Assembly: GCF_009617975.1 (NCBI RefSeq)
Contig: NZ_CP040089.1
Location: 630,001-662,000, forward strand
Reading direction: 5' to 3'
DNA length: 32,000 bases
From: Candidatus Nanohalobium constans
Lineage (GTDB): Archaea; Nanohalarchaeota; Nanosalinia; Nanosalinales; Nanosalinaceae
Shown here in pieces: positions 1 through 32,000 of this stretch (positions are counted from its first letter, which is position 1; every line of letters begins with the position of its first letter). The notes below the pieces were generated by a model, which ran no database searches, had not been told where the DNA came from, and saw only the letters and a program-made list of their open reading frames with translations. Position numbers and translations under genes: made by a program.

Positions 1-1292
1 ACATCTCCGAAAACATAGTCTATGTTTCGTTCTTTCAGTCCGTCTATTTTTTCTGGATCGTATTCAATGACAACCGGTTTCTCTTCAAGACCTTCGACAA
101 TTTTCTTGCCTTGTACATCATATCCTATGAGGATGATGTGGTTTTCCGGTTCGTCGACGGTTGACTCCATTCCGTCTGGTGTGGCGAAGAGGTTGGAGAA
201 TATTTTGTACAGTTTTTGCTGGTTTCTGCTGGTGTAAGCCGATAATGTCATCGTTGCTGCAGTAGCTACTACCACTGATTGAAGGAGACCTATCTGTATG
301 AGTTCAAGCAGGTATGCCTGTATCGCGATGATTACTGCGAACTCGCTTACCTGATCCAGTCCAAGACCTGTTAGGAATGCTACCCTGCTGTTCTCTTCTA
401 CCGTACGCAAAGCAGTATAAATCACGAAAGGATTAACAACTAGGGTAAACGCTGTTATTGCCGCAGCCGTGATGAATACTTGGGTGTCTGCGGTTGCCGC
501 TATTGCTCCGATGGATACGAACAGTATTGCTGTGAAGAAGTCTTTGAGAGTTCCAACTGTGTCGATTATCTCCAGGCTGTAAGGGTATTTTGAAAGAGCT
601 AGACCTGCTGCGAACGCTCCGACGACGGTTGGAATTTCCAGTATATAGGAGATTCCTACGAATCCTGCGAGCGTTCCAAGTGAGAAAACCATTATTGTCT
701 CTGTTGAGTCTTTGAAGCTTTTCGCGAAAACTGTAAATCCTTTTTTAAAGCTGTAAGACAGGATCAACAGGACTAAACCGTAGGTTACGGCGTGTAAAGG
801 AGTTACTGAGAAGATCAGAAGTATCAGTATTACAGCTGCCAGATCTTGAAGGAGTTGAACTGTTTCAATTAGTCTGCTGTGCACCAGTTCTTTTCTTAAG
901 TCGTCGCTGATAAGCTCTAATCCAACTAGGGAAGATGATAGGGCTGATGCAGATACAAATACTGCTATTTCAATCCCTCTTAGCTGTAGTAGAAGTGCTG
1001 TGGGCAGTGCTAGGGTCGTTGTCATGACTATGGATACGACGGCGGCTAGTCCTCCGTTTCTTGCGACTGATTGAAGTTTGCGTGTGCTGAACTTTACACC
1101 ATAGATGAAAACCAGGAATGCTATGCCCACTCTTGATAGGTCAAGCACCTGATTTAGTTCCATGAAATTGGTTAAGAATAGCCCTGATAGTATATAGAGC
1201 GGTACAGCTGGTTGGTCTAGTTCTCTGGAAATCAGCAGTGCTGTTGCTGCTGCCGTGAAGATAAGTGTAAGTGTAAACAGTATTTCGCTCAT
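1..1292 (-). CDS. CPA2-family (Kef-type) monovalent cation/H+ antiporter with C-terminal RCK/TrkA-N domain; partial, 3' end runs off the window
   Basis: Not in the supplied ORF track because it is open at the window edge. My own minus-strand translation from the ATG at 1292-1290 is stop-free down to position 1. It reads MSEILFTLTLIFTAAATALLISRELDQPAVPLYILSGLFL..., continues through many hydrophobic segments, and ends ...ENHIILIGYDVQGKKIVEGLEEKPVVIEYDPEKIDGLKERNIDYVFGD (Rossmann-like RCK start). It has the same architecture as 1289..2953. Its ATG overlaps that gene's TGA (ATGA). Confidence 0.75.
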   Translation of the reverse strand, partial: MSEILFTLTLIFTAAATALLISRELDQPAVPLYILSGLFLTNFMELNQVLDLSRVGIAFLVFIYGVKFSTRKLQSVARNGGLAAVVSIVMTTTLALPTALLLQLRGIEIAVFVSASALSSSLVGLELISDDLRKELVHSRLIETVQLLQDLAAVILILLIFSVTPLHAVTYGLVLLILSYSFKKGFTVFAKSFKDSTETIMVFSLGTLAGFVGISYILEIPTVVGAFAAGLALSKYPYSLEIIDTVGTLKDFFTAILFVSIGAIAATADTQVFITAAAITAFTLVVNPFVIYTALRTVEENSRVAFLTGLGLDQVSEFAVIIAIQAYLLELIQIGLLQSVVVATAATMTLSAYTSRNQQKLYKIFSNLFATPDGMESTVDEPENHIILIGYDVQGKKIVEGLEEKPVVIEYDPEKIDGLKERNIDYVFGD

Positions 1293-2953
1293 CTTGATTG
1301 CCACTTGATTTTTTCTTTTTCAGCTTTTATTTCCTGTTTGAATAGCTCCGGTTCTTCCCTGTAAAGGTTGAGGTAGTCGAGCAGTTGCTCTGCCGTCAAC
1401 TCGTTCCTGCGTATCACATAATGTGCGCCGAGTTCGTACAGCTCCAGGGCTTCTTCCAAGCTTTCAGCCCTTAAGAAGACTGTGGCATCAGTTACATCGT
1501 CAAGCACTTGAAGGTTTACCTCGTGCTGACCGGACACCGAGACGACGAGCTCAGCGCTTTGAAGCCTGGAAGAGTTTCTTATCTCACCATGCCGGAAATC
1601 ACCGTAGATATACTCAAAGCTTGAGCCGCTCAGTTCATCTATATTGTTGGAGTCAGAGTCAATAACAAGTATATCGTCAAAGCTTTCTTCCAGAGTTGTA
1701 ACTATTCCACGGGATATTGCATCGTAGCCTACGATAACCGCATGATCTTCTAATCGACTGATATCTACATCATTCTTTTCCTCTGACTTGAATCCTTCAA
1801 GCAAGTGTTCAAACCTGGAATGAAGAGAGGTATTGAAGTTTATGAGGTACGAGGATACTGTCATGGTTGTTATGGCTGTGAGGCTGGCAAAGCCGACGAA
1901 CTCTGTGGAAATCATTTGTTTGGATGCGGCTAGCGTTGCTAGGACAATTGAGAACTCGCTGATTTGTGCCATGTTTATGCTGGATAGGAATGAGGTTTCA
2001 GGTGAGAACTTGGAGTAATCTGTAAGCAGAAAGCCTGAGAAGAACTTAAGTGGGATAACCAGCAGTGATACTATGATTGCTTCCATCCAGTACATTGCTA
2101 TGGCGTCTTGTGTAAGCTTGAGTCCTACTCCTATGAAGAAGACTGCCATGAATACATCTGTGAGCGGTCTGATTCTTTCCATAACCTCTTCACTGATCTT
2201 TAGCCTTCCCAAGCCGATTCCTGCAAGAAATGAGCCGATCTCAACCGACAGGTTTAGGAACTGAGAGACCTGGATAAAAATGAAGAGCCAGGCAACTGCA
2301 TAGATCAGGAATCCGTGTTTCTCCTCAGCAAACGAATTAAATAGTCTTGAAAGAAGATACTTAGACGATATTACAGATACGACAGCTGTTAAAAGTATAA
2401 ATACAATCGTTTCACTTATTTTAAATCCTAGGGCAGTGAAGCTGTTGGCTGAAGTGTTTAAAGCGGCTAGACCTAGGACAACAACTATGTCTTGAAGTAA
2501 GAGTATGCTTACATCCAGCCTTCCTGGTAGAGAAGTTATCTGGTCTTTGTCGGAAAGCATTTTTACTACTACTGCCGTTGAGGAGAACATCAGGAATACT
2601 CCTGTGAATGCTGCCTGGACAGTTGTAAAGCCAAGCAGGTTTCCTATTATGAAGCCTGATATAAACATGAAGACCATTTGAAGACCTCCTATTAGAAGTG
2701 TAGGACCTATAATTTCCTTTACATCCTCAACATCGATTTCCAAGCCGATCAGGAACAGTAGGAATGCAAGACCGAGTTCTGAGAACAGTTTGATGGCTTC
2801 GCTGTGTGAAGTTACTCCGAATACCGCTGGTCCTAGAACCAGTCCTGTTAAAATGTATGCGATTACCGTGGGCTGTCTGAGCTTGTGGAAGATTATGGCT
2901 AGGGCTGCTGCTGAAACCACTGCTAACGCCGCTGCCTGTACTCCTACAACCAT
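1289..2953 (-). CDS. CPA2-family (Kef-type) K+/H+ antiporter with C-terminal RCK/TrkA-N domain
   Basis: The 554-aa product has a polytopic N-terminal part (ILTGLVLGPAVFG, ELGLAFLLFLIGLEID) typical of the Na_H_Exchanger/CPA2 family. The C-terminal part (HAVIVGYDAISRGIVTTLEE..VIDSD) is an RCK fold. Its start overlaps the Sua5 stop. Confidence 0.85.
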   Translation of the reverse strand: MVVGVQAAALAVVSAAALAIIFHKLRQPTVIAYILTGLVLGPAVFGVTSHSEAIKLFSELGLAFLLFLIGLEIDVEDVKEIIGPTLLIGGLQMVFMFISGFIIGNLLGFTTVQAAFTGVFLMFSSTAVVVKMLSDKDQITSLPGRLDVSILLLQDIVVVLGLAALNTSANSFTALGFKISETIVFILLTAVVSVISSKYLLSRLFNSFAEEKHGFLIYAVAWLFIFIQVSQFLNLSVEIGSFLAGIGLGRLKISEEVMERIRPLTDVFMAVFFIGVGLKLTQDAIAMYWMEAIIVSLLVIPLKFFSGFLLTDYSKFSPETSFLSSINMAQISEFSIVLATLAASKQMISTEFVGFASLTAITTMTVSSYLINFNTSLHSRFEHLLEGFKSEEKNDVDISRLEDHAVIVGYDAISRGIVTTLEESFDDILVIDSDSNNIDELSGSSFEYIYGDFRHGEIRNSSRLQSAELVVSVSGQHEVNLQVLDDVTDATVFLRAESLEEALELYELGAHYVIRRNELTAEQLLDYLNLYREEPELFKQEIKAEKEKIKWQSR

Positions 2954-3525
2954 TACTTCAACACTTCTTGGAGGTCCTCTTCAGAGATCGGTCCCCTACG
3001 ATGAAGTACGGCTTCTCCGTTATTAACTTCTGCGATAGTCGAAGTAGGACCATCACTCAACTTACCTTCATCAACCACGAAATCAACCTTCTCCAGTAAT
3101 TCATCAGAGATATCATCAACGCTGTAAGAAGTACTTTCGCCCGAGATGTTTGCAGAGGTAGCAGTTATAGGTCCTTCTTCAGCCAGTTTTCGAGCAGTTT
3201 CACTGCCTGGAATACGGAAGACAAAACTTTCATTCAAGTTATCTGGCACATGACTCTTTTTCTCTACGACTAAAGTTAGTGGTCCTGGCATAAACTCCTC
3301 AATCAATTTTCTTTCATCTTCAGTCAAATTAGCATGTTCTTCAACCTGCTCCAAGTCACAGCAGATAGTTGTCAAAGGCTTAGACTTCGGTCTCTGCTTC
3401 GCTTCGTATACTTTCTCCACTGATTCTTGATTTAATGCGTCTGCTGCGATTCCATACGCTGTCTCGGTTGGATAGACTCCGATTTTGCCTTCATCTAATC
3501 TTCCTCGGTATTCCTGGAGATTCAT
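2953..3525 (-). CDS. tsaC: YrdC/Sua5-domain threonylcarbamoyl-AMP synthase (short TsaC-type, t6A pathway)
   Basis: The 190-aa product carries the motifs YPTETAYGIAADA, KQRPKSKPL, GPLTLV and ATSANISG that are typical of YrdC/Sua5. It has no C-terminal SUA5 domain. Confidence 0.85.
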   Translation of the reverse strand: MNLQEYRGRLDEGKIGVYPTETAYGIAADALNQESVEKVYEAKQRPKSKPLTTICCDLEQVEEHANLTEDERKLIEEFMPGPLTLVVEKKSHVPDNLNESFVFRIPGSETARKLAEEGPITATSANISGESTSYSVDDISDELLEKVDFVVDEGKLSDGPTSTIAEVNNGEAVLHRRGPISEEDLQEVLK

Positions 3526-4327: not shown

Positions 4328-5302
4328 CTAAATCCAATCAACTTCGACTTGATCTGGACGCCAACCCGGCTTAACACCTGAATACGTCAAATCAAGCCCT
4401 TTATCACCATTTTTCAATTGAATTAATCCTTGGTGGGCAATCATCGCACCGTTATCCATGCAGTATGCTGGCGGCGGGAAGTATGCTTCTGCATCTCTCT
4501 GTTCACACATCTTTTCCACCATTTCACGCAGTCTAGAGTTCATTGCGACTCCTCCTGTAAGAAGTGCTTCTTTCGAACCGCTCTGACTCATCGCTCTTTC
4601 CAGTGCCTCTACTACAGCTGCATAGGCATGTTCCTGGAAGCTGTTGCAGAGAACCGGTTCTTCGACATCTCCAATCTTTCTCTGAGTTTCCGTGACTAAT
4701 CCAGAGAAGGAGAAGTCCATTCCCTTGATAGGATAGCTTAATTCGATTATTTCATCAGTTTTACCTGCCTGATTCTCTATTTCCGGTCCTCCAGGATGTG
4801 GATAACCCAAGTCACGAGCCAGTTTGTCTAGTGCGTTTCCCAGTGCGATGTCCTGTGTTTCTCCGATCACTCGGTATCGCCCAGATCTGTATTCTATTAT
4901 CTGACTGTTTCCTCCGGAGACATAGAGAGTGGTAGGGTCCTCCGCATTAGTGGTTCGAGTGCCGATGGAGATATGTGATAAGCAGTGGTTGACTCCTAGA
5001 AGAGGGATGTCGTGTTTCTCAGCCAGGCTTCTTGCCACGACTGCCCCAACATCCAAGCACTGAGGAATACCCGGGCCTTGAGAAAAAGCAATCGCATCAA
5101 GTTCATCAAAATCAGCGCTTTTCTGTTTCGCCTCATTCAACTTCTCCAAAGCATGCTGATAATGATGCTCAGCCGCCTTACGAGGGTGAATACCGCCCTC
5201 ATCCGGCTCAAACATCGACTTCACACTACACAGCACTTCGTCTTCACTGACTACTCCAACTCCAAATGTATGTGCAGTGCTTTCAATTCCAAGAACTTTC
5301 AT
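4328..5302 (-). CDS. kae1: Kae1 (tRNA N6-adenosine threonylcarbamoyltransferase), not fused to Bud32
   Basis: Motifs LGIESTAHTFGVGVV, GVNHCLSHI (metal-binding His pair), YVSGGNSQ, TGGVAMNSRLREM and CMDNGAMIA match the Kae1/TsaD family. Confidence 0.95.
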   Translation of the reverse strand: MKVLGIESTAHTFGVGVVSEDEVLCSVKSMFEPDEGGIHPRKAAEHHYQHALEKLNEAKQKSADFDELDAIAFSQGPGIPQCLDVGAVVARSLAEKHDIPLLGVNHCLSHISIGTRTTNAEDPTTLYVSGGNSQIIEYRSGRYRVIGETQDIALGNALDKLARDLGYPHPGGPEIENQAGKTDEIIELSYPIKGMDFSFSGLVTETQRKIGDVEEPVLCNSFQEHAYAAVVEALERAMSQSGSKEALLTGGVAMNSRLREMVEKMCEQRDAEAYFPPPAYCMDNGAMIAHQGLIQLKNGDKGLDLTYSGVKPGWRPDQVEVDWI

Positions 5303-8436: not shown

Positions 8437-8819
8437 AATCCGGGATCTTTCCTGTTCAGTACTTCTAGGTAGCTTTCATTTCGGATATGAATGACTTCAG
8501 CATTTACCTCCAGCAACCTTTCCTTCAATTCCCTGTCGTTGGTGGCGATTACATAGTCTCTGCTGATTTGTACTAGTAGGTCGTCTACTTCGCCTTGTCC
8601 TTCTGTTTCGAGTACTTCTATGTCTTTTTTCTCTATCAGTTTTTCGACTAGGTTGCCGTATTTTCCTTGTTCTATGCTTTGTGCTTCTTGGAGCGCATCA
8701 TCAATAGTATAAATCTCAGAATTTGGGAAGATTCTTTCTATTTCTTGGAATATGTCGATTGAGTCGAGTTGGAATGGTGCTGTGAGGAAGTTGGTGTCGA
8801 GTATGATTTCGCGGCTCAT
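8433..8819 (-). CDS. PIN-domain protein (Fcf1/Utp24-like archaeal PIN usually linked to aIF2-gamma)
   Basis: Acidic PIN signature residues are present: EIILDTNFL, ..ETEGQGEVDD.. and VIATNDRELKERL. Its stop overlaps the stop of the convergent 7414..8436 gene inside the palindrome CTAG. Confidence 0.8.
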   Translation of the reverse strand: MSREIILDTNFLTAPFQLDSIDIFQEIERIFPNSEIYTIDDALQEAQSIEQGKYGNLVEKLIEKKDIEVLETEGQGEVDDLLVQISRDYVIATNDRELKERLLEVNAEVIHIRNESYLEVLNRKDPGF

Positions 8820-8842
8820 AATTTTTGACTTGAGTTTAATCG

Positions 8843-10036
8843 TTAAATTGAGGGGTTGAAGAGTTTGTCAGCAGTTATTTCTGGTTCCTTTATCATGCCG
8901 CCTATTTCTTTCTCGAGTTTGTCAGCCCATTCTTGGTTTACTTTGCCGATGAGCATCTTGTCTTTGTCTTCTATGTTTTTCCAGTCGTTTCTTCCTGCTT
9001 TGTATATGTGGTGCCTTAGTGCTTCCCGGTTTCTGGCTACGAGGTAGAAGCTTCTGTCTACTGAACCGCCTAGTTCTATTAGTTCTTCGACTATTTCTTG
9101 GAAGTCTTCTCGATAGTTTTCGGATTGGCTGATTTTGTATGCTGCGACTAGTCTGAGATGGTAGTCGAAAGCTTTGTTTTTGTATGCTGTTCCTGTTGCT
9201 TCTTCTCTGTATAGTGCTCCGCCTTCTTCGGCTCTGTCGTAGAACGGTGTGTGGAGCCCTAGGATTTTTGGAAAGCCGCTTTTCTGTCCTGCTTTGAATC
9301 CGTTGTATGCTCTTGCTGCGTGAAACAGTTCATGTTTGGTCAGCATCCTGGCTTCTTCCTCGGAATACATCCTTTGACTATCTTCGCCTTTTGACACTAC
9401 AACTGTTTCTTTTTCAGGGATGTTGAAACAGCCTGAAACTTCTCTAAGCTCTACTTGGTAGTCCATTCCCAGTCTTTCTACTTCTGCTTCGAACATGTCT
9501 CTGAGTTCTTCAGGAGAAATATTTTCCTCCAGTTCTTCTTTTTCCAGTTCCTGAAGTTTCTGTAGCGAGTCTTGAACAGTTTCTTCACCGACCATTGACC
9601 AGATCTCTTCCGAATATCTTCTCCAAGAGCCTTCATCTTCTATATTGGCAGCTAATTTGGTGTAGAGTTTGAGTTCCTGGAATATTTCCTGGAAGAAGTT
9701 CTGCATTTCCTGTGAAGTAAGCTTCTTTGCACCATATTTCTCCAGATTATCTTCTTCAATTAGTTTTACAGCTTCTATGCATTGTTCAATAAGTTCAAGA
9801 AGTTTTTCTTCATCGTAGGATGTTTTGCTGTATTCAAAGTTTGGTTTGAAGTTTTCTTCTTTTTCTCTGGCTTTTTTGAATCGTTTTCTTTCCTGTTTTT
9901 TGTTTTGTATGTTGATGTTGGAGATCCATGAAGCCTGTTCCAGCAGTTTTTCTGCGGCTGTTGAGAGTTCCTGTATGATCTTATCTTGATCAAATTTTAG
10001 GACTTCTTGCTTTTGGTCGATTTCCTCAGGCTGCAT
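8843..10036 (-). CDS. DUF1704 / MATCAP-like (QEGLA-motif family) putative zinc metallocarboxypeptidase
   Basis: HELFH (HExxH, residues 235-239) is followed by AARAYNG, then ILGLHTPFYDRAEEGGALYREE. EEGGA matches the QEGLA third-ligand motif that names the family. The N-terminal region NIQNKKQERKRFKKAREKEENFKPNFEY resembles the family's conserved N-terminal segment. This is recollection of the family profile, not a search. Confidence 0.6.
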   Translation of the reverse strand: MQPEEIDQKQEVLKFDQDKIIQELSTAAEKLLEQASWISNINIQNKKQERKRFKKAREKEENFKPNFEYSKTSYDEEKLLELIEQCIEAVKLIEEDNLEKYGAKKLTSQEMQNFFQEIFQELKLYTKLAANIEDEGSWRRYSEEIWSMVGEETVQDSLQKLQELEKEELEENISPEELRDMFEAEVERLGMDYQVELREVSGCFNIPEKETVVVSKGEDSQRMYSEEEARMLTKHELFHAARAYNGFKAGQKSGFPKILGLHTPFYDRAEEGGALYREEATGTAYKNKAFDYHLRLVAAYKISQSENYREDFQEIVEELIELGGSVDRSFYLVARNREALRHHIYKAGRNDWKNIEDKDKMLIGKVNQEWADKLEKEIGGMIKEPEITADKLFNPSI

Positions 10037-10057
10037 AAGTTAACCAGTCTTTTCAGA

Positions 10058-10067
10058 AGAATTAAAG
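10058..10067. promoter_or_regulatory. TATA-like AT-rich box centred in the 57-nt divergent spacer
   Basis: GAATTAAAGA lies roughly 25-33 nt from both start codons (10036 on minus, 10094 on plus). This fits a shared bidirectional archaeal promoter with very short or no leaders. The call rests on the sequence pattern only. Confidence 0.3.
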
Positions 10068-10093
10068 AGTATTGAAGTAAGAGTTATGATTTC

Positions 10094-16400: not shown

Positions 16401-16459
16401 TCGAAAATCACCCAGTGATTTTCTGTGAGTCCAGAAATTCTTTGAATTTCGTTCATAAT

Positions 16460-16834: not shown

Positions 16835-16952
16835 AATTTAATCTACCTCAGTTTCCCGAGCATGAAACAAATCGGAGACAACCTTTTTGAATCAAATGAG
16901 GATGTGTTGCAGGTATGAATTTTTATTCGAGAACTGAGAACCGGTTAAGTGT

Positions 16953-19030: not shown

Positions 19031-19057
19031 TTTAAGATTTTATAAGCCGTTTAGAAT

Positions 19058-19351: not shown

Positions 19352-19366
19352 TCAATTGAAGTAAAA

Positions 19367-20782: not shown

Positions 20783-20799
20783 GATTTTACCCCATTTCT

Positions 20800-22020
20800 G
20801 TGAGTCGAGAATTTCTTTGGGGTGCGTCCATGTCTCCACACCAGGTTGAGGGACATAATGAAAATAACTGGACAGAATGGGAGAAGAATAATGCTGAGAA
20901 GTTAGCAAAAGAGGCAGAATCCAGTTTTGGATCGTTAAAAATTTGGGATAAAATAAGTGAGAAAGCTACTTCTCCCCAAAATTACATGTCAGGCGAAGCT
21001 ATCAACCATAAGAACCGGTACAAGGAAGATATACAGCTTGCACAAGATATGGGTCTTAATGCTTTCCGTTTTGGAATTGAATGGTCTAGAGTAGAACCAA
21101 AAGAAGGAGAATTTTCAGAGGAAGCAATAAGCTACTATCGGGATTATATCTCCGAAGTCAGAGAAAATGGAATGGAGCCAATAGTCACTCTATGGCATTT
21201 CACGAATCCTAAATGGTTTTCTGAAAAAGGAGGATGGACCAACCCAGAAAACAAAGATTATTTTCTCAGATATGTTGAAAAAGTAATAGACGAATTTGGA
21301 GACAAAGTTACATACTGGATAACCTTAAACGAACCCTTAGGATTTATCTTTAATGCGTATATAATGGGTAATTGGGCTCCAGGGAGAAAAGCACCCTACT
21401 CCGCATTTAAATGCCTTAGAAATTTCCTATCAGTGCATAAAAAGACCTACGCTGAGATAAAAAGAAATCACCCTGATTCAATGGTTGCAACAGCTAACAA
21501 TATGACGAATTTCAACGCAGTAAATGACTTAATACCAAATAAGGTGATTGCGAAGGCATTAAGACGCATAGAAAGAGGTTACCTAATTGAGAAAACAATA
21601 GAGGAGCAGGACTTCATCGGAGTAAATCATTATTTTAAACATGATATTGACTTGTTAGGTCGAACATCAGAAGAAATAAAATCAGATCTTGGCTGGAGTC
21701 AGTCACCACAAAGCCTTGTCAGAGTAGTTGAGGAAATGTCAAAATGGGACAAACCTATACTCATAACAGAACACGGTATAGCAGACAGTAATGATGAGAA
21801 AAGAAAATCATATCTTCAGGAGTCTCTCTCAGAACTGGAAAATGCTGAAAACACAGAGATTCTAGGGTACCTCCACTGGAGCCTGCTAGATAATTTTGAA
21901 TGGGATAAAGGATTTTGGCCTAGATTCGGCTTAATAGAAATAGATTATGAAAACAATCTGGAAAGAAATATTAGAGATAGTGGCAAGCTCTACTCTCAAA
22001 TTATAAAAAAACTCAATTAG
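20800..22020 (+). CDS. glycoside hydrolase family 1 (beta-glucosidase/beta-galactosidase-like)
   Basis: Motifs FLWGASMSPHQVEG, FRFGIEWSRVEP, TLNEP (acid/base Glu), ITEHGIA (nucleophile Glu) and HWSLLDNFEW. A GTG start is required because the conserved FLWG precedes the first ATG. Confidence 0.85.
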   Translation: MSREFLWGASMSPHQVEGHNENNWTEWEKNNAEKLAKEAESSFGSLKIWDKISEKATSPQNYMSGEAINHKNRYKEDIQLAQDMGLNAFRFGIEWSRVEPKEGEFSEEAISYYRDYISEVRENGMEPIVTLWHFTNPKWFSEKGGWTNPENKDYFLRYVEKVIDEFGDKVTYWITLNEPLGFIFNAYIMGNWAPGRKAPYSAFKCLRNFLSVHKKTYAEIKRNHPDSMVATANNMTNFNAVNDLIPNKVIAKALRRIERGYLIEKTIEEQDFIGVNHYFKHDIDLLGRTSEEIKSDLGWSQSPQSLVRVVEEMSKWDKPILITEHGIADSNDEKRKSYLQESLSELENAENTEILGYLHWSLLDNFEWDKGFWPRFGLIEIDYENNLERNIRDSGKLYSQIIKKLN

Positions 22021-22021
22021 A

Positions 22022-23368
22022 TTAGATTTTCTTTTTTACCCTATACCATGTCTTATTTCTCCCTAATAGAAACTCAACAAAGGATTTTATCGTTATCAAG
22101 CTGAATATAGGGAAGATAAAGGGAGAAACAGGCCAAGATTTGATTCTTCCAATCCGGTTCTCAGATAGAGAATTATTCACGAGACCAGATATAGCAATCA
22201 GATAAATTATTAATACAGGGAGGATGTAGATTGAACTTACTCCCATAAAGACCAGCAACAAGAACTTAGATACAAGGAGAAGCATAAAAAAACTTCCAAA
22301 GATACTAAATACTCCCAGCAATACAGATAAAAAACTTCTACTACTCCAATTTCTCCTTAAAATACCTATATTTTTGCTGAGGACTTGGAAATACCCCAAC
22401 ATCCATCTTTTTCTCTGACACCACCAATCATCAAAACAGACAGGAGAAGCTTCCCTTGAACCCAATTTAAGAAAAGTTGACACATTCAAATCATTCCTAT
22501 AAGTTCTGAAAGCATAATCTATATCCTCAGTAAGTAATTCCTCATCAAACTTCCCTAATTTATTCAATTTTTCTCTCTTGAAAATTGTTGATTTCGTTAG
22601 TACAAGCCTGAACCCAGTAATATATCTAGTTAGCTGGCGAGGTAGCTTAAAGAACAAATCCTGATAGTATGTCAAACCTCCAAAAAAATCCTGAGATTCA
22701 GGCATATTTCTCCCTTGCACCACATCACTAGAATTATTGAGTTCTACTACTGCAGAAGAAATAAACTCTTCATCAACCACCTGATCAGCGTCAAAGAAAC
22801 CAACATAATCAGACTCAGTATTCTCAACAGCATAATTCAACGCACCCGCCTTACTTCCCGGATAACCATTAACCATGTACTCGAATCCATCAAACCTTTC
22901 CTGCAACCCTTCAGCTATATTCAAACCTTCCTCATCATCTTCCTCCAAAACACCAACAACCTTCAAATCTTCATAATCCGATCCTAGTAAGGACTCAACA
23001 CTTCTATGCAGAACATCAGCATCCTGATAACTCGGAACAACACACACAACAGAACCCCCTGCATCACCATAGTCAACATCACTCCAAGAAAAAAGCCTAT
23101 ACCCAAAAATCAAGGCTGAGAAAAAGAAAAAAGCAGCAAAACCCAGACTGGAAGAAACAGCATCCAAAAAAGCAAACTCAACAACCACAAAAAACAAATC
23201 CAGAGTAAAACTTTGCACCTGAACACCCTGAAAAACACCAAACAACAACAGCACAACAACTACAAAAGCAAAAACACCACGCTCCAACCACTTAGACAAC
23301 AAACCCACAACAAAACAAACAGAAACAAAAAAGTAAAAAACCTCAGCAAAACCCCTCCCGAAACCCAA
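22022..23368 (-). CDS. processive family-2 glycosyltransferase (cellulose/chitin/PNAG-synthase-like) with flanking TM helices
   Basis: The D, DxD, TED, QxxRW signature is present: VVPSYQDADV, FFDADQV, LLTEDIDYAF and CQRKRWMLG. There are about 3 N-terminal and about 4 C-terminal TM helices. The start is uncertain (TTG at 23368, no early ATG). Confidence 0.8.
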   Translation of the reverse strand: MGFGRGFAEVFYFFVSVCFVVGLLSKWLERGVFAFVVVVLLLFGVFQGVQVQSFTLDLFFVVVEFAFLDAVSSSLGFAAFFFFSALIFGYRLFSWSDVDYGDAGGSVVCVVPSYQDADVLHRSVESLLGSDYEDLKVVGVLEEDDEEGLNIAEGLQERFDGFEYMVNGYPGSKAGALNYAVENTESDYVGFFDADQVVDEEFISSAVVELNNSSDVVQGRNMPESQDFFGGLTYYQDLFFKLPRQLTRYITGFRLVLTKSTIFKREKLNKLGKFDEELLTEDIDYAFRTYRNDLNVSTFLKLGSREASPVCFDDWWCQRKRWMLGYFQVLSKNIGILRRNWSSRSFLSVLLGVFSIFGSFFMLLLVSKFLLLVFMGVSSIYILPVLIIYLIAISGLVNNSLSENRIGRIKSWPVSPFIFPIFSLITIKSFVEFLLGRNKTWYRVKKKI

Positions 23369-23484
23369 AAAACTAGTCCAAAAACAGCCTCAACAACCAA
23401 AAACAAAACATAACACCCAAAAAAACACTTCTCCCACCACAAACATCAAATTTACTTAAAACCCGATAGCCAATACAATAAACA
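23040..23484. other. extreme A+C-rich (G- and T-poor) tract on the plus strand
   Basis: Runs such as aaacaacaacagcacaacaactacaaaagcaaaaacaccac contain almost no T and few G for about 450 nt. The tract spans the 5' part of the GT2 gene and the whole divergent intergenic spacer. Confidence 0.7.
23451..23461 (+). promoter_or_regulatory. TATA-like box upstream of the surface-protein gene
   Basis: TTTACTTAAAA lies 24-34 nt upstream of the GTG at 23485. This fits a leaderless transcript. Confidence 0.25.
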
Positions 23485-25578
23485 GTGATTACTATCAGAT
23501 CACCTCTGAAAAAAACACTTCTACTACTCACACTAACAACCCTAACAATCAGCCTAGGAACAGCACTTCAGTGGGACCAACCCGATGAAAACGCCCACAT
23601 AAACGATGAATTTGAACTAACAGTAACTGGCAATGATGGGCTAGATGACGTAGAGTTGTATTATGATGAAGGCGACGGCTGGGAGTCAGCAGACTCTATG
23701 AGTGAGTCTTCCACGAAAGGAACATATACTAAGACCGGCGTTGATTCTGATATAGGAAGCTATGAAGGTTTAGAGCTTAAGGCTAATACCTCAGGAGAAG
23801 ATTCCACAGACGATAGAACAGTTACTTTAGATGTTGGAGAGCCCCAAGTTGAGTACAATGGAGACGGCGAGTTTGTCCAAAAGGATCCTACAGTCACTTT
23901 CGAGGTTTCTGATGAGTACAGTGAAGTAACTGGAGCTGAGATCAGCGTTGATTCTAACGACGGGGATGTCTCTGTCGATGGAGATGATGAAAAAGACCCT
24001 AACTGCGACGTAGACGATACTTGTGATGTTGAATTTGATATTGATACTGAAGACTTAGAAGAAGGAGATGAGATTGAAGTAACTGTAACTGCTGATGATG
24101 AAGCAGGTAATATAGAGAAGCAGGATGAGACTTTCACTCTTGATTCTGAATGGGATGGTGATTCTAGTGCTAGTGTTGAGTGGGTTGAGTCTGAGAGTAG
24201 TGTTTTGACTGGTTTTGAGGATGAGGATCAGGATTTGGATATTTCTTTCCAGCCGGATACTGTTTCCGACACTACTGTTATTTGCGAGGTTGATGGTGAT
24301 GAGGTAGACAATGCAAATATCGATGCTTCTGATGAGGATGAGACTGCTAGTTGTGAGTTTGATAGTGATGATTATGCTGGCAGTAGTTTTGAGTTGACTG
24401 TTGAGGCTGAGGATGAGGCTGGTAACAGTGAGACGTTGGTTGATGAGAAGCGTATGGTTTGGGATACTGATGCTCCTAGTGTGGATCGTTTGGAGCAGCC
24501 TCAAGGTGTTTCTACTTTTAACAGTGGTTTTGATTTGAGTGTTTTGGTTAATGATGATGCTTCGGGTATTGAGTCCTTGGAGTATTACTTTGATGCTGGT
24601 ACCGAGTTAGGTGAGGGCAGCCAGGTTGATCTGGAGGATTCCGAGTCTACTGTTATTGATCATGATTTCAAGGTGGAGCCCGGTGACTTGAGCAGAGGGA
24701 GTCATACGGTTTATGTCCGTGCTGAAGACGGTACCGGATTAACCGATGTCTCAAGCTTTGATTTCGAGTATTATCCTAACAGGAATCCGGAGATTAACCT
24801 GGGTGCTCCTGACCGTTTTGAAGTGACTTCAGGGGAGTCGAAGACCTTTGATTTAAGTATTGAAAACGGCGCTCCTTTCTTCTTGAACAGCGTTGAAGTT
24901 ACTTCCAGCAGTGCTGCCTGGGACGGGACTAGAACAGTTACAGGGCTTGAGGAAGGTGACAGCGTTAAGAGAAGTATTACTGTCGATGCTTCCAGCCTTG
25001 ACGTCGGTGTTTACGATTTGAAGATTCAGACTGCTAACTATGATGCCTCAAAAACTGTTGAAGTTGTTGTAAGGGCGACCGAGGATCAGAAGCAGAGTAT
25101 CGAGTCAAGTCTTCAGGACTGGAAGAGCAAGAGAGATGTTTTGAACGAGAATATTTCCAAAATTGGAAATCTTGAAGCCAGCGATGAGGATATCAGTCAG
25201 TTTACTGAGACGGTTTCAAAGGCTGAGAAGGCTGCTGAGAAAGGTAATTACTACGAGGTAAAGTCTCATCTCTCAAGTATTGATTCAAGCTTTGAGCAGG
25301 CGTCTCAAACTTTCTCCGAGAAAAAGGATACGTTCCAGAAGAAGCAGAGGAATCAGATGTACTTGATCGGATTCTTCTTACTGGTTTTGATAGGTGGCGG
25401 TGGAGTCGCAGCCTATCTTTACAGCGGTGAGGAAGATGTTTCCGAGCTGATTCCGGAGGATTGGGACGTAGAGCTACCTGAAGAGATGCCTGAGATCGGT
25501 GTAAGAGAGAAGGTTGAGGAGCTTGTAGGCGAGGCTGAGGAAGAAGTTGAGGAAGAGACAGGTTACAGCTTCAAGTAA
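23485..25578 (+). CDS. large acidic cell-surface protein with Ig-like DxAGN repeats, a C-terminal TM anchor and an acidic tail
   Basis: It starts at GTG with a signal peptide (MITIRSPLKKTLLLLTLTTLTISLGTALQ). Three repeat cores are present: VTADDEAGN at 24094, VEAEDEAGN at 24409 and VRAEDGTG at 24721. A coiled segment follows, then a TM helix (MYLIGFFLLVLIGGGGVAAYLY) and a tail of about 60 aa rich in E. Confidence 0.7.
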   Translation: MITIRSPLKKTLLLLTLTTLTISLGTALQWDQPDENAHINDEFELTVTGNDGLDDVELYYDEGDGWESADSMSESSTKGTYTKTGVDSDIGSYEGLELKANTSGEDSTDDRTVTLDVGEPQVEYNGDGEFVQKDPTVTFEVSDEYSEVTGAEISVDSNDGDVSVDGDDEKDPNCDVDDTCDVEFDIDTEDLEEGDEIEVTVTADDEAGNIEKQDETFTLDSEWDGDSSASVEWVESESSVLTGFEDEDQDLDISFQPDTVSDTTVICEVDGDEVDNANIDASDEDETASCEFDSDDYAGSSFELTVEAEDEAGNSETLVDEKRMVWDTDAPSVDRLEQPQGVSTFNSGFDLSVLVNDDASGIESLEYYFDAGTELGEGSQVDLEDSESTVIDHDFKVEPGDLSRGSHTVYVRAEDGTGLTDVSSFDFEYYPNRNPEINLGAPDRFEVTSGESKTFDLSIENGAPFFLNSVEVTSSSAAWDGTRTVTGLEEGDSVKRSITVDASSLDVGVYDLKIQTANYDASKTVEVVVRATEDQKQSIESSLQDWKSKRDVLNENISKIGNLEASDEDISQFTETVSKAEKAAEKGNYYEVKSHLSSIDSSFEQASQTFSEKKDTFQKKQRNQMYLIGFFLLVLIGGGGVAAYLYSGEEDVSELIPEDWDVELPEEMPEIGVREKVEELVGEAEEEVEEETGYSFK

Positions 25579-25582
25579 GGAG

Positions 25583-25927
25583 CTAGATTATTCTCTCGGC
25601 TTCTCCAAATTCTTCTTTCATTATTCCTTTGTCTCTTACTGTGGTGATTATGTTTCTTAGTTCTTCTACATAGCTTTCATCTTTCGCTACTTTGTCTGCG
25701 ATATCGTTGAGCAGTATACCGGTTTGCGGGTCTTCTTTCAGGTCCTCTACTATCCTCTGATTGGCTCTCTTCTGGTTCAGGTATTGGGAGACCGCCGGCT
25801 GAGTAACTTCCAGTTGATCCGCTATCTCGTACTGGTTTAGGCCGTATTCGTCCTGGAGTCTTGAAGCTACTACGCTTCTGACCGCAGGAAGTAATTCTTC
25901 AGTTACTACTTCAGATTCGAATTTCAC
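25583..25927 (-). CDS. HTH-domain transcriptional regulator (COG2522-like)
   Basis: A helix-turn-helix is present (LNQYEIADQLEVTQPAVSQYLNQKR). The start is GTG. The gene is convergent with the surface-protein gene at 4 nt spacing. Confidence 0.7.
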   Translation of the reverse strand: MKFESEVVTEELLPAVRSVVASRLQDEYGLNQYEIADQLEVTQPAVSQYLNQKRANQRIVEDLKEDPQTGILLNDIADKVAKDESYVEELRNIITTVRDKGIMKEEFGEAERII

Positions 25928-26013
25928 AGTAAATGATAACGCCGTGATATTGTTAAATCAAACCATGGTGAAAGAAGAATAAGTTGAGAGAAAAACAGAG
26001 GAGAAAGAAAATG

Positions 26014-26355
26014 TTAGTGGTCTGCCTGGTTGACTTCCCGTGATAGTTTTTCTATATCTGCGCTGAGTGCTTCTAGTTTGCGGCTGACTCGTTCTTTTTC
26101 TTTGATGATGTTTTCCACTTTTTCGTATTTCCTTGCTGCTGTGTCGAGATGGTGTTTTTCGACATATGCTGCGTCGGTTTCCATCATGTTGTCGATGATT
26201 TCCTGTGCGATCTCTCCTAGAAGAAGGTTGAGACCGTAGTATACGTTTGATCGGACGTACTGTCCTTCTCCGGCTTTGTCTCTGATCATTCTTTTGATTC
26301 TAGCATGTGTGAACGGAAGGTCTTCTACTTCAGTATCGTTTGGGACTTCTACCAT
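26014..26355 (-). CDS. histone-fold (CBF/NF-Y/archaeal histone-like) protein with C-terminal coiled-coil extension
   Basis: DLPFTHARIKRMIRDKAGEGQYVRSNVYYGLNLLLGEIAQEIIDNMMETDAAYVEKHHLDTAARKY fits the alpha1-L1-alpha2-L2-alpha3 pattern. The ARIKRMI segment resembles the ARIKKIM segment of NF-YC/NC2. A heptad-like tail of about 35 aa follows (VENIIKEKERVSRKLEALSADIEKLSREV). Confidence 0.5.
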   Translation of the reverse strand: MVEVPNDTEVEDLPFTHARIKRMIRDKAGEGQYVRSNVYYGLNLLLGEIAQEIIDNMMETDAAYVEKHHLDTAARKYEKVENIIKEKERVSRKLEALSADIEKLSREVNQADH

Positions 26356-26466
26356 GTTATCACAGGCAAAAATTCGGGTTAGAAGCTTTTAATGCTTTGC
26401 AGAACCCGGGAAATGTTGAGTTAGTTTACCGATAGATATAAACCCGCTGGTAAGTGAAAATTGGTT

Positions 26467-26691
26467 ATGGTTGATTGGCAGGCCGTGAATCTGGGATTGG
26501 ATATCATCGTGAAAATAGTTTTTCTAGCAGTTTTCGTGGCTTCTCTGTACATGCTTAAGAGGATGGATGACCTGGTTCAGAAGGCTGAAGAGTCTGCCGA
26601 GTCTATCGAGGATACCGCTGAGAATATTGGTAGGATGATTGAGTTTGCCCGTAAGCTTCCTTTCACAGGTAAAAAAGGTGATGAGAGTTGA
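26467..26691 (+). CDS. small single-TM protein with helical tail (DUF948-like architecture)
   Basis: A TM segment (LGLDIIVKIVFLAVFVASLYML) is followed by an amphipathic acidic helix. The ATG at 26467 lies inside a TTG-started ORF. Confidence 0.45.
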   Translation: MVDWQAVNLGLDIIVKIVFLAVFVASLYMLKRMDDLVQKAEESAESIEDTAENIGRMIEFARKLPFTGKKGDES

Positions 26692-26936
26692 ACGAGTTTG
26701 TTGAGGCGGCTAAAGATTCTTCCAGTTCTGAGGATTCTGAGGATCGTTATAACAAGGTGAAGAAGGAAGAGGCCGGGACCGAGGATACTGATCCTGCGAA
26801 GCAGCGTTATAACGAGATTAAGGAGAAGGCTAAGAGAGAGTATAAGAAGCAGGAGGAAAGGCGTAAGGAGCGGCAGGAAAAGAAGGAGCAAGAAGAGGAG
26901 GAAACTGAGGAAGATCCTGGTTTCGTAACCTATTAA
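26688..26936 (+). CDS. hypothetical K/E-rich small protein
   Basis: An 82-codon ORF with only a TTG start, overlapping the upstream TGA (TTGA). It contains a repeated RYN(K/E)(V/I)K motif. The composition is low-complexity, so coding status is uncertain. Confidence 0.3.
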   Translation: MNEFVEAAKDSSSSEDSEDRYNKVKKEEAGTEDTDPAKQRYNEIKEKAKREYKKQEERRKERQEKKEQEEEETEEDPGFVTY

Positions 26937-30806: not shown

Positions 30807-31550
30807 TTAACCCGAGTCCCTGATAGCCAGGCTATACCTTCTCGCCAACTCAACATCCTCCGGCATACTAGGATCAGAAGACCGGAAAACAAAATCCTCA
30901 GAAGCCCCGGAACCACCAGAACCGTCAGAACCTCCACTAGCATCGCCAGTAACATTTATCTCAAGATCAGTAGCAGAGCCCTGAATATCCTTAGCCTCAC
31001 CATAAATCTCAGACCCATTCTTCAACTGCTCAGGCTCAGGATTAAGTATATCCTCAGGCTGCAACTGAGAGAAAACCTCCCTACTCTCCTGCACAGGCTG
31101 AAAATCAGTTAAACCAGACAAAGCAGTCAAAAAACTCAAAACACCTATCAAAACAATCTTCTTAATAATCTCGGCCCCCGGAATAATACTCTCAGAAGTA
31201 ACACTCCTCGCCCTCTGCATCAAATCATCAAACATCGCCTGAGAAACAACATTCTGACTATCCAAATTATCCCGCGCAGTCCTCAAAATCTCACGGAGCT
31301 GAGGATTCTCCTCCTCATAAATCTCCAACCTATACTTCCGAGAACGATAAACCCAATCAGCCAAGAGAAAGATGAAAGCTGAGGCTGCTAAGATCCGGTA
31401 ATGTAGAAAATCACTGACAAGAGTAATATTCAAAATAAACAGGACAAGGTTTACAGCTAGAAAGGCTGTTAACGAGTCCAGGAAAGCCTGGATAAGATTG
31501 ACCTTGATAAATTCTCTTCGAAGCCGCTTAAGCAGTTTCTCAACCCTCAT
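30807..31550 (-). CDS. hypothetical membrane protein associated with the MoxR module
   Basis: Two N-terminal TM helices, a helical cytoplasmic segment, a third TM helix, then an acidic Gly/Ser-rich region (ASGGSDGSGGSGASE). It overlaps the upstream gene by 11 nt. Confidence 0.5.
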   Translation of the reverse strand: MRVEKLLKRLRREFIKVNLIQAFLDSLTAFLAVNLVLFILNITLVSDFLHYRILAASAFIFLLADWVYRSRKYRLEIYEEENPQLREILRTARDNLDSQNVVSQAMFDDLMQRARSVTSESIIPGAEIIKKIVLIGVLSFLTALSGLTDFQPVQESREVFSQLQPEDILNPEPEQLKNGSEIYGEAKDIQGSATDLEINVTGDASGGSDGSGGSGASEDFVFRSSDPSMPEDVELARRYSLAIRDSG

Positions 31551-31995
31551 TGCTTGTTCCTACCTCATGACCCCATCGATTACAGTTATGCTCTGCTCCA
31601 GAACCTCCAGAGCTCTCCGCACATACAACACTCATAGAAGAGTTAATATCATTTAGAGTATCCTCTAAATCCCTGCTTTCCCGAGCATTCTCAACCTCAC
31701 TCTCCAACTCAGAAATCCTATCATTTTTCTCATCAACAGTATCACTCAAGTTCTGTTTCTCAGCCCTCAACTCACCTAAATCTCCCTCATACTCACGAAG
31801 CTTAACAGACATGTTGGAAACACGGGCATCCAACCGAGTTACTTCAGTATCCAAACTGTTTCTCTCTTCCTTGAGTTCGCTGATCCTGTTCTGTTTATCG
31901 CTGATTTGATCCTGAGATAAAACTGCAACACCCGCCAAAAGCGAAAGAGCAGCTACGGTAGAGATCAGGAGCAGCGGGTTCAGCCGTCGTTTCAA
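31540..31995 (-). CDS. hypothetical N-terminally anchored coiled-coil protein
   Basis: A signal anchor (KRRLNPLLLISTVAALSLLAGVAVL) is followed by about 90 aa of heptad-like sequence and a Cys-containing tail. The start given is TTG. The reading frame stays open to the window edge, so the true 5' end is uncertain. Confidence 0.45.
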   Translation of the reverse strand: MKRRLNPLLLISTVAALSLLAGVAVLSQDQISDKQNRISELKEERNSLDTEVTRLDARVSNMSVKLREYEGDLGELRAEKQNLSDTVDEKNDRISELESEVENARESRDLEDTLNDINSSMSVVCAESSGGSGAEHNCNRWGHEVGTSNEG

Positions 31996-32000
31996 AAGTG

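Follow-up and report, generated by a model that had tools for sequence, protein, structure and literature searches.

Why should silent sites within a single gene switch between codons ending in G or T and codons ending in A or C? The question arises in a 32,000-nt stretch of the genome of the tiny halophilic archaeon Candidatus Nanohalobium constans, labelled G000 (contig NZ_CP040089.1, positions 630,001 to 662,000, hereafter the window), where the initial annotation described a patchwork of two synonymous-codon preferences that change inside genes, core genes included, on both strands.

Third-position skew within genes

Using the sense-strand third-position keto skew, k3 = (G+T-A-C)/n, we recovered every G/T or A/C block that had been named, and k3 bears out switches within core genes on both strands (Table 1). 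Further internal switches lie in the ATP-grasp genes near 10330 (k3 -0.04 to +0.39) and 11280 (-0.29 to +0.36) and in TrkH near 17900 (-0.24 to +0.12). Between its two G/T-ending blocks Kae1 has a k3 of -0.20 (4451-5040), aIF2-gamma upstream of its tract lies at -0.13 to -0.18, and the surface-protein gene reaches +0.66 at 24130-24760, with -0.03 and +0.27 on either side. As annotated, A/C-ending codons prevail along the full length of trkA (-0.52), phr (-0.47 / -0.27) and the MATCAP-like gene (-0.31 / -0.62).

It had also been proposed that third-position keto skew and its change points be compared with synonymous shuffles. Run genome-wide with a CUSUM statistic per gene against within-gene synonymous shuffles, this comparison detects intragenic patchiness at p<=0.05 in 359 of 738 genes, and 194 of the 738 reach the permutation floor. 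Shuffle z values in the window are 4.3 for Kae1, 3.7 for aIF2-gamma, 4.0 and 6.7 for the ATP-grasp genes, 3.5 for TrkH, 8.0 for the surface protein, 5.8 for GT2 and 6.6 for DUF7502. The synonymous-shuffle test scores 7% of genes as patchy in E. coli and 8% in G025, a nanohaloarchaeon of a different family; three same-genus assemblies and one closed genome of another genus (G009) show patchiness comparable to that of G000. Within the window the GC3 and purine3 axes give 8% each, so that the patchiness is confined to the G+T versus A+C axis.

Table 1. Tracts and blocks in the window. Values are + strand third-position skew unless marked sense k3; the strand given is the G/T-rich one.
Coordinates	G/T-rich strand	Feature	Basis	Contents and context
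3..2912	+	moderate tract, + strand G/T-rich (+0.29)	change-point segmentation of third positions	
4328..4450	-	Kae1 3' end, sense k3 +0.37	k3 of named block	
5041..5227	-	short tract within Kae1, sense k3 +0.68, flanks -0.04 and -0.20	k3; Kae1 shuffle z 4.3	weaker version common to three same-genus relatives
8535..9320	+	strong tract, + strand G/T-rich (+0.73)	segmentation, k3	straddles PIN-like / MATCAP-like gene junction; both genes - strand, A/C-rich sense
9323..13652	+	4.3 kb domain, + strand G/T-rich (+0.33)	segmentation, k3	genes in both orientations: MATCAP-like (-), two ATP-grasp (+), two RimK-like (-)
15330..15560	-	tract within aIF2-gamma, sense k3 +0.45	k3	absent from same-genus orthologues
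16122..17015	+	tract, + strand G/T-rich (+0.51)	segmentation	aIF2-gamma 5' end, ribosomal protein S6e, intergenic region, TrkH start; recombination breakpoints in relatives adjoin the locus
17018..22751	-	5.7 kb domain, + strand A/C-rich (-0.23)	segmentation	TrkH, trkA, phr, 20800-22020 gene (all +); GT2 3' part (-)
22754..23625	-	extreme tract, + strand A/C-rich (-0.67 third positions)	segmentation, k3	all-position skew -0.69 (200-nt windows); GT2 N-terminal membrane segment, entire divergent intergenic region, first surface-protein codons; sharp polarity flip at right end
23628..26742	+	domain, + strand G/T-rich (+0.39), core 24130-24760	segmentation, k3	surface-protein gene (+), three small - strand genes
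30825..31362	-	window's most extreme tract, + strand A/C-rich (-0.83), within DUF7502 gene	segmentation, k3	sense third positions A 0.04, C 0.06, G 0.38, T 0.52; gene in relatives at most +0.07 to +0.28
31365..31996	-	weaker continuation, + strand A/C-rich (-0.30)	segmentation	

The framing as two preferences did not hold. Hidden Markov fits continue to gain up to five states (emissions 0.13 to 0.85), the G/T share of third positions ranges locally from 13 to 85%, and the histogram of gene-level skew is broad and unimodal (SD 0.30): local skew is a continuum rather than two classes. The chromosome is tiled by ~880 single-copy tracts in which one strand is enriched in G+T and its partner in A+C, independent of gene direction. 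They cover ~46% of silent sites, core genes included. Their median length is ~0.25 kb and their mean length ~0.5 kb; the longest reach 5 kb. Polarity flips hundreds of times, mostly inside genes, with a correlation length of ~0.5 kb and no long-range component in G000 (autocorrelation 0.008 at >=9 kb), in keeping with the earlier argument that neither gene-level horizontal transfer nor a single replication skew fits.

A property of the physical strand

Sense k3 of neighboring genes correlates at +0.33 in tandem pairs, -0.31 in convergent pairs and -0.33 in divergent pairs, and the skew of intergenic DNA tracks that of the neighboring third positions (r 0.53 and 0.39). Amino-acid usage shifts along with the skew, with Val, Cys and Trp up and Thr, Gln and Pro down. 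Together these observations mark a property of the physical strand and not the synonymous-codon preference originally described. At 4-fold sites, composition mirrors between opposite tracts (A.58 C.24 G.08 T.10 versus A.12 C.09 G.20 T.59) at constant GC, with homogeneous GC3; the chief enriched base is T, or A on the partner strand. We therefore regard a strand-asymmetric process at the DNA level, rather than codon choice or an artifact, as very probable.

Polarised changes at 4-fold sites are directional as well. On the keto-rich strand, forward/reverse ratios are 2.9 for C>T/T>C, 2.4 for A>G/G>A, 1.7 for A>T/T>A and 2.8 for C>G/G>C, figures that rest on majority-rule ancestors at near-saturated sites, where two-step paths could imitate transversion asymmetry. 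All four changes that cross between amino and keto bases are thus unidirectional on a given strand; the within-class exchanges show no clear bias (A<>C 0.8, G<>T 1.4), and ratios in neutral tracts are about 1. Of the local mutational process suggested in the initial annotation, what stands is this directionality of silent-site change on one strand.

Recombination and mismatch repair

Comparisons within the genus indicate that recombination between diverged alleles, in tracts of about 0.5 kb, is frequent. The sequences L064 and L065 are 99% identical, with 61 of their 75 differences in one 490-nt tract and spaced mostly by multiples of three, while L060 and L061 match exactly for 2.4 kb, beyond which they diverge by 25-45%, with a k3 at the TrkH start of +0.85 in L060 versus +0.15 to +0.50 in L061. 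Support for the three four-taxon topologies differs between adjacent genes (27:7:4, 21:13:40 and 4:21:3). The earlier idea of recombination between two diverged populations holds in that such tracts exist in the genus. A simple two-population mosaic does not follow: skew similarity follows ancestry weakly (22/54 versus 18 by chance), and windows with outlying skew show no excess protein divergence (ratio 0.99), so any donors came from within the gene pool. Distant imports were tested as a cause and rejected.

NucS/EndoMS, intact with both domains, is the only mismatch-repair protein found in G000, where MutS was not found. Among relatives, NucS is present in 26 of 31 and MutS in none of the 31, in a search that was positive in 11 of 14 control genomes. 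In assays of enzymes from other species, NucS/EndoMS recognizes and cuts G/T, G/G and T/T mismatches and ignores A/C, A/A and C/C (PMC4838380; PMC6159521); it also suppresses homeologous recombination (PMC8228993). The set of directional changes at 4-fold sites coincides with this published specificity (PMC4838380, PMC6159521).

The best reading, which we hold tentatively and whose mechanism is inferred, is frequent recombination of diverged alleles whose heteroduplexes are policed by NucS/EndoMS alone. Pairing of the resident strand with one strand of a diverged allele would produce mismatches; those made by G and T would be cut and revert to the resident allele, and those made by A and C would be ignored and segregate, so that only the A/C alleles of the incoming strand would be transmitted. 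Each event could then shift several percent of the silent sites across an entire tract towards A/C on the incoming strand, leaving the protein undamaged because donor alleles have already passed selection. Events of both polarities would build a random field of mirror-image tracts at the scale of recombination tracts, with which the observed lengths are compatible, and selection would probably exclude a G/T-rich sense strand from conserved, highly expressed genes. This scheme assumes that conversion dominates silent-site change and that repair after cutting brings back the resident allele. Several observations speak against it, among them the weak link between skew similarity and ancestry noted above. 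The L064/L065 import contains 16 keto-increasing and 29 keto-decreasing changes, that is, change in both directions, so a strict filter was inactive there. G025 possesses NucS and yet has long-range domains without intragenic patches, which indicates that NucS alone does not set the patch scale.

Several other causes can be weighed against NucS-filtered conversion. One, rather unlikely, is that strands left briefly unpaired, as resected ends, gaps or displaced strands, accumulate damage. Such damage would drive the exposed strand, which sets the polarity, to T and G through C>T deamination, A>G deamination, and base loss with A inserted opposite. On the keto-rich strand, C>T and A>G do show the strongest directionality, T leads the 4-fold enrichment, and changes specific to G000 in Kae1 are mostly CAC>CAT, TAC>TAT and ATC>ATT. 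Endonuclease V, which acts on deaminated adenine, is reduced to a 51-residue remnant, and the amplitude resembles the strand asymmetry of vertebrate mitochondrial DNA. However, C>G is also unidirectional (2.8), which deamination does not predict, and a uracil-DNA glycosylase gene is present. Single damage events alter few bases, whereas the observed SD of ~0.37 would require each random-polarity event to alter ~10% of sites, wrecking coding positions unless local polarity persists. No determinant of lasting polarity emerged: the metagene profile is flat, increments are weakly asymmetric with no clear sawtooth, and no motif anchor was found.

An error bias of the polymerase or tautomer type, in low-fidelity local repair synthesis that reads one strand for a few hundred bases and prefers keto or amino mispairs, would yield correlated GC and TA skews, and we consider it unlikely. 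Correlated GC/TA skew, a third-position maximum, sign changes within 1 kb and amino-acid shifts all recall GRINS, whose authors offered this hypothesis (PMC8256042), and replication errors in nucS-deleted Streptomyces are strand-biased 3:1 on the keto axis (PMC11109965). As with damage, amplitude is the difficulty: error rates per event are far too low unless one strand is repeatedly resynthesised at one place, and neither such a polymerase nor a recurrent site was identified here.

It is distinctly improbable that the tracts are relics of long-range, replication-linked skew in related lineages, with opposite polarities pasted together by homologous recombination, which presupposes that lineages differ in the replication strand a given locus occupies. 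In its favor, the strand domains of G025 span 20 kb or more, with skews near +-0.3 and an opposite-strand neighbor correlation of -0.86, the genus recombines frequently, and TrkH alleles that differ greatly in skew sit between identical flanks in two haplotypes. The lack of autocorrelation in G000 at 9 kb and beyond argues against it, as do tracts at +-0.7 to 0.8, exceeding any long-range skew in sampled relatives, and the absence of added protein divergence in skew-outlier windows. Synteny across the window is kept in the genus while gene-level skew still differs (for example, -0.40 versus +0.28), and closed genomes of the same family, in the regions sampled, show patches or weak skew instead of strong polarity.

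Selection on codons or on RNA/DNA folding, such as translational optimisation or, given the high salt inside the cell, selection against stable secondary structure, is most improbable and, as primary cause, largely refuted. Sense strands are on average A/C-rich (mean k3 -0.14), and in the window ribosomal-protein genes strongly favor A/C-ending codons and G/T-rich sense strands occur only in poorly conserved genes, so selection probably limits the tolerated polarity; but the signal keeps to the physical strand across opposite genes and intergenic DNA, and the within-gene pattern is little conserved across genera (r 0.07-0.13). Avoidance of RNA structure was rejected: folding is no weaker in native windows than in their synonymous shuffles (-38.4 versus -37.6 and -37.2 kcal/mol), and G/U-rich windows form more stable folds than resampled controls do (n=3). 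Transcription, replication arms, UV context and palindrome anchors were each tested as causes and rejected. An assembly or sequencing artifact, be it the chimeric assembly raised initially or a consensus merging strains, is equally remote: in principle, relatives assembled from metagenomes could combine several strains, but the G000 assembly consists of one 973,463-bp contig agreeing in size and GC with the published closed co-culture genome of strain LC1Nh, reading frames are intact with recognized domains, a coherent amino-acid shift accompanies the skew, and the three same-genus assemblies and closed G009, assembled independently, give equal statistics.

Relation to known compositional asymmetries

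The closest published system is GRINS (PMC8256042). GRINS were defined as duplicated regions of >500 bp and >80% identity and were reported from bacteria, chiefly from Streptomyces polyketide synthase genes and from transposases (PMC8256042). Shared features are local, intense and co-varying GC and TA skews (G+T versus C+A) with abrupt same-strand sign changes within 1 kb, a third-position maximum, location in functional genes, the same amino-acid shifts and an association with gene conversion. In contrast to GRINS, the tracts described here are single-copy, archaeal and chromosome-wide; repeats make up just 0.22% of the genome and none of the window. When all codon positions are pooled, the GC/TA correlation is gone (r -0.05 to -0.13), a loss that we attribute to putative purine loading of the coding strand.

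Replication-associated asymmetry, with a G/T-rich leading strand and strand-biased transitions in nucS-deleted Streptomyces (PMC11109965), runs along the same compositional axis, and G025 has long domains of that type. It differs from the pattern in G000, where polarity flips at the sub-kilobase scale. The heavy and light strands of vertebrate mitochondrial DNA, one A/C-rich and the other G/T-rich, drag amino-acid composition along, with a similar amplitude at neutral sites; the mitochondrial genome has a single polarity set by its replication mode, whereas G000 is a mosaic of both.

In GC-biased gene conversion, biased handling of heteroduplex mismatches acts as a directional force on composition that is independent of fitness. 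It is the mechanistic analog of NucS-filtered conversion, whose bias would instead be keto/amino and strand-specific, and would produce mirror-image tracts rather than higher GC.

Local keto skew along the strand

The genome under study (G000) is a single contig of 973,463 bp at 43% GC, and agrees in size and GC with the closed chromosome of Candidatus Nanohalobium constans LC1Nh, obtained from a co-culture with Halomicrobium (PMC7443923). Neither skew nor codon usage is mentioned in that genome paper, and our literature search returned no description of a keto-skew pattern in nanohaloarchaea. Along the + strand of the window, keto skew (G+T-A-C) in 200-nt windows ranges from -0.69 to +0.40. 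At the gene level, third-position keto skew on the sense strand (k3) spans -0.66 to +0.64 across the window and -0.8 to +0.8 genome-wide (SD 0.30), with binomial noise estimated at about 0.06. The initial annotation had described a patchwork of A/C-ending and G/T-ending codon preferences that switch inside genes, and every block that it named was recovered at its position. Intragenic heterogeneity exceeded that of within-gene synonymous shuffles (p<=0.05) in 359 of 738 genes, 194 of them at the permutation floor; the test is well calibrated, since on the keto axis it flagged 7% of genes in E. coli and 8% in G025, a nanohaloarchaeon of another family, and in the window it flagged 8% on each of the GC3 and purine3 axes. 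The annotation's picture of two preferences proved a simplification: hidden Markov models fit better with more states, up to five, whose G/T fractions span 0.13 to 0.85 and whose dwell lengths are 250-500 nt. Decoded with three states, the + strand carries 422 A/C-rich tracts and 457 G/T-rich ones, of median length about 240-290 nt, mean about 0.5 kb and maximum 4.9 kb, which together cover 46% of silent sites; 98.8% of state changes fall inside genes, and 46 genes contain both extreme states.

This patchwork very probably reflects a DNA-level, strand-asymmetric process that varies locally. When 4-fold sites are classed by the skew of nearby 2-fold sites, their composition passes from A.58, C.24, G.08, T.10 to its mirror image, A.12, C.09, G.20, T.59, and their GC stays at 0.29-0.34 across skew classes. 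Codon positions 1 and 2 also follow the skew, and proteins change with it: in G/T tracts they gain Val, Ser, Asp, Cys, Trp and Phe and lose Thr, Asn, Lys, Ile and Gln, with ratios between extreme skew bins of 1.31 for Val, 1.46 for Cys, 1.35 for Trp, 0.64 for Thr, 0.75 for Gln and 0.86 for Pro, while Gly (1.07) and His (1.08) hardly move. Gene-level AT3 and GC3 skews are correlated at r -0.75 (that is, TA/GC +0.75); over all codon positions in 150-nt windows, mean absolute GC skew is 0.17-0.19 and mean absolute TA skew 0.21-0.24, and the correlation is lost (r -0.05 to -0.13).

Familiar sources of compositional bias fit poorly. Translational codon-usage bias acts on the sense strand only, extends gene-wide and is conserved in orthologues; here, intergenic skew tracks that of adjacent third positions (r 0.53 and 0.39; the spacer ahead of the GT2 gene, for example, is G/T-rich), genes are internally heterogeneous, and the within-gene pattern correlates across genera at r 0.07-0.13, below control axes. 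Transcription-associated asymmetry would take its polarity from the transcribed strand and vary along the unit, but among 929 confidently framed genes the sense skews of neighbours are correlated at +0.33 in tandem, -0.31 when convergent and -0.33 when divergent, and the profile measured from gene start and gene stop is flat. Replication-associated asymmetry, with arm-long polarity that switches at origins and termini, is at odds with 879 skewed tracts and a + strand third-position autocorrelation that falls to 0.02 at 2.4 kb and 0.008 at 9 kb. Read on the + strand, skew is still correlated at 2.4 kb (0.022); read on the sense strand, it is not (0.002), as befits a property of the DNA strand.

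Turnover and recombination among relatives

Genes of the window with clear domains include Kae1/TsaD, aIF2-gamma, S24e, S6e, photolyase, a GT2 glycosyltransferase, DUF7502, four ATP-grasp genes and a MATCAP-like peptidase. Three same-genus genomes are syntenic over this region at 66-82% DNA identity. Six frames are without counterpart in their syntenic regions (see table), so gene content varies within a conserved gene order; such frames adjoin several of the tracts with the strongest skew. One cluster, which combines a MATCAP-like carboxypeptidase with ATP-grasp genes, looks like a possible peptide-tail ligating and trimming system; the relatives carry a single ATP-grasp gene in place of the tandem pair and are without the MATCAP-like gene. 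A strongly A/C-ending gene encodes a protein of 113 residues without a Pfam match, which shows 93% identity in the three same-genus genomes. Several runs of six or seven T lie on the sense strand in the G/T-rich 5' part and leader of the GT2 gene; such runs are transcription terminators in other archaea.

Features of the window, of relatives and of the genome (positions are those of the window unless a contig is named; L-numbers denote contigs or genome stretches)
Feature	Location	Strand	Remark
Frame without same-genus counterpart	3600-4139		
Frame without same-genus counterpart	7414-8436		
Frame without same-genus counterpart	8843-10036		
Frame without same-genus counterpart	19058-19351		
Frame without same-genus counterpart	20800-22020		
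Frame without same-genus counterpart	26577-26891		
Cluster with ATP-grasp genes	8843-13674	-, +, -	MATCAP-like carboxypeptidase (-); tandem ATP-grasp pair (+), weak tubulin-tyrosine-ligase-like matches; two RimK-like ATP-grasp genes (-)
Gene with flipped skew	12862-13674		-0.40 vs +0.28
Runs of six or seven T, GT2 gene	22960-23440	-	
113-residue protein gene	26014-26355	-	k3 -0.60
Replaced TrkH tract	L060:1-800 vs L061:7825-8625		
Replaced TrkH tract	L064:84-569 vs L065:1802-2287		
Endonuclease V remnant	G000:C1 ~468,375-468,530 (L141:575-730)	-	51-residue frame

Skew profiles over 30 codons correlate between G000 and its same-genus relatives at r 0.29-0.53, and at 0.12-0.28 once gene means are removed, while gene-level values correlate at 0.49-0.80; some genes have flipped. 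Identity at 4-fold sites is 0.35-0.40, where 0.24-0.27 is expected for independent sites, and skew computed from disjoint sites still correlates at 0.30-0.43. From the profile correlations, the 4-fold identity and the disjoint-site correlations, it follows that the intragenic pattern is renewed at roughly the pace of silent-site change; the gene-level component of the skew is longer-lived. Patchy genes make up 35-45% of genes in the genus, 51% in G009 (a closed genome of another genus in the same family) and a weak 18% in G013. G025 has, instead of patches, domains that extend over at least 20 kb with a skew of about +-0.3. There (L055-L059, GC about 0.60), the strand with most genes is A/C-rich and real genes on the opposite strand are G/T-rich in sense; if these domains are replication-linked, an A/C-rich gene-rich strand would be opposite in bias to what is usual for a bacterial leading strand.

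Silent changes specific to G000 are dominated by C>T in G/T tracts (12 of 20 ancestral C) and by G>A and T>C in A/C tracts, a directional pattern that is visible codon by codon in Kae1. The nearest metagenomic match to G000 has only 82% DNA identity, and no closer relative was found for polarising recent changes. We pooled four genomes as focal lineages and polarised 541 changes at 4-fold sites, with majority-rule ancestors at nearly saturated sites. Read with that proviso, forward/reverse ratios on the keto-rich strand are 2.9 for C>T/T>C, 2.4 for A>G/G>A, 1.7 for A>T/T>A and 2.8 for C>G/G>C; from the same ancestors, exchanges within a class give 0.8 (A<>C) and 1.4 (G<>T), and neutral tracts 0.9-1.3.

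Recombination is frequent in this genus, yet does not by itself explain the skew. L064 and L065, both metagenomic contigs of the same species, share 99% identity, yet 61 of their 75 differences fall in one 490-nt tract, spaced mostly by multiples of three; this tract was imported from an allele with about 12% divergence. Two contigs from different samples (L060 and L061) show no difference over 2.4 kb, after which the TrkH start and spacer diverge by 25-45%. In L060, this TrkH start has k3 of +0.73 to +0.90 and encodes a Val/Phe/Gly/Ser-rich protein 53-60% identical to all relatives; the L061 allele is ordinary. In this genus TrkH, which lies beside S6e and aIF2-gamma, is a hot spot of recombination, with replaced tracts in these two independent near-identical contig pairs (table), and TrkH of G000 groups with that of G003, against its neighbouring genes. 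Adjacent genes of the window back differing four-taxon groupings (27:7:4, 21:13:40 and 4:21:3). Nonetheless, in windows where one genome is a skew outlier, the protein distance ratio is 0.99, with no extra divergence, and the closest-skew partner is the phylogenetic partner in 22 of 54 windows (18 by chance). Normal protein divergence and a near-chance partner match make imports from distant, long-range-skewed lineages unlikely. Sources outside the genus were rejected for the same lack of excess protein divergence, and the tracts are unlike horizontally acquired segments of atypical GC, since GC3 is heterogeneous in only 8% of genes.

NucS surveillance and a proposed biased conversion

The mismatches that EndoMS/NucS binds and cuts are those that consist of G and T (G/T, G/G and T/T); A/C, A/A and C/C are not recognised (PMC4838380; PMC6159521). 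The enzyme also suppresses homeologous recombination (PMC8228993). Set beside our substitution data, this specificity, published for enzymes of other species, would appear to coincide exactly with the axis and substitution classes of the skew. G000 encodes an intact NucS (NucS_N and NucS_C, 261-residue frame), and NucS was found in 26 of 31 relatives. MutS_V was found in none of the 31, with 11 of 14 control genomes positive. The combination of a two-domain NucS with no MutS in the MutS_V search agrees with NucS/EndoMS repair. The whole-genome search of G000 returned no intact endonuclease V; a short remnant, located immediately downstream of a class II aminoacyl-tRNA synthetase gene, resembles the family's C-terminal part at 21 bits, below cut-off.

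We tentatively favour a reading in which recombination heteroduplex between diverged alleles, under surveillance by NucS alone, would undergo strand-specific biased conversion, which would write mirror-image keto/amino skew tracts. On the present comparison we give this reading less than even weight, and prefer it because it agrees with the skew axis, with the length of the tracts and with the repair inventory, and because only recombination between alleles that selection has already passed can move several percent of a tract's silent sites in one step and leave the protein undamaged. Against it, the sole clearly delimited import (L064/L065) carries changes both ways, G025 has NucS yet no intragenic patches, and the direction of mismatch correction is an assumption.

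Other causes were rejected. Many small random mutation clusters would, we infer from the variance, need about 10% of sites changed per event. An origin-like sawtooth is contradicted by weak asymmetry (increment skewness 0.1-0.2; 88 large jumps up vs 78 down), and palindrome anchoring by small steps: the largest among 4-bp palindromes is 0.018 (GGCC +0.014, z 1.3), and the largest overall, -0.097 at GGTACC (n=57), is not significant. Transcription was rejected on the flat metagene profile and the anticorrelated divergent neighbours. Native windows are no less folded than local or genome-usage shuffles, contrary to avoidance of RNA or single-strand structure; UV dipyrimidine feedback is not borne out, since a 5' pyrimidine does not raise the T/C ratio at two-fold sites and only a general CpG-type effect appears; copy-the-neighbour slippage fails as T after T is disfavoured, and missing uracil repair as a uracil-DNA glycosylase gene is present.

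Likeness to GRINS and implications

In its phenomenology the patchwork closely resembles GRINS, repeats with intense nucleotide skews whose mechanism their authors call unknown (PMC8256042). As in GRINS, G000 has intense, positively correlated GC and TA skews that are strongest at third positions and that change abruptly inside functional genes, so that one strand carries both signs over a distance of about 1 kb. The amino-acid shifts (in GRINS, Gly, Val, Cys and Trp up and Pro, Thr, His and Gln down with positive skew) also recur, with Gly and His nearly flat. What G000 lacks is the duplication (>500 bp at >80% identity) that is the repeat substrate of paralogue gene conversion in GRINS: BLAST of the window against the genome returned just one 206-nt match at 72% and one 50-nt match, and repeats of at least 300 bp at at least 80% identity make up 0.22% of the genome. 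No paper in the literature library searched connects GRINS with NucS.

Actinobacteria likewise depend on NucS. A broader and more doubtful proposal is that NucS/EndoMS without MutS/MutL may lead to biased conversion that writes skew tracts across whole archaeal chromosomes, that the same mechanism might explain actinobacterial GRINS, and that codon and amino-acid usage would thereby be subject to a non-adaptive force of a new kind. The correspondence between the skew axis and the substrate specificity of NucS offers a concrete, genetically testable hypothesis for the origin of the skew.

Taken together, a local, strand-specific and gene-blind process shapes nearly half of the silent sites in a cultivated archaeon, and the finding extends the GRINS phenomenon from bacterial gene-cluster repeats to single-copy DNA chromosome-wide in an archaeon. 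Inference from codon usage in such genomes, whether for expression prediction, detection of horizontal transfer or codon optimisation, would mislead, and gene finding would too, because long shadow frames arise in skewed tracts. Amino-acid composition is dragged along, to the point that one TrkH allele is now only 53-60% identical to its relatives, and phylogenies of DPANN archaea may therefore be distorted.
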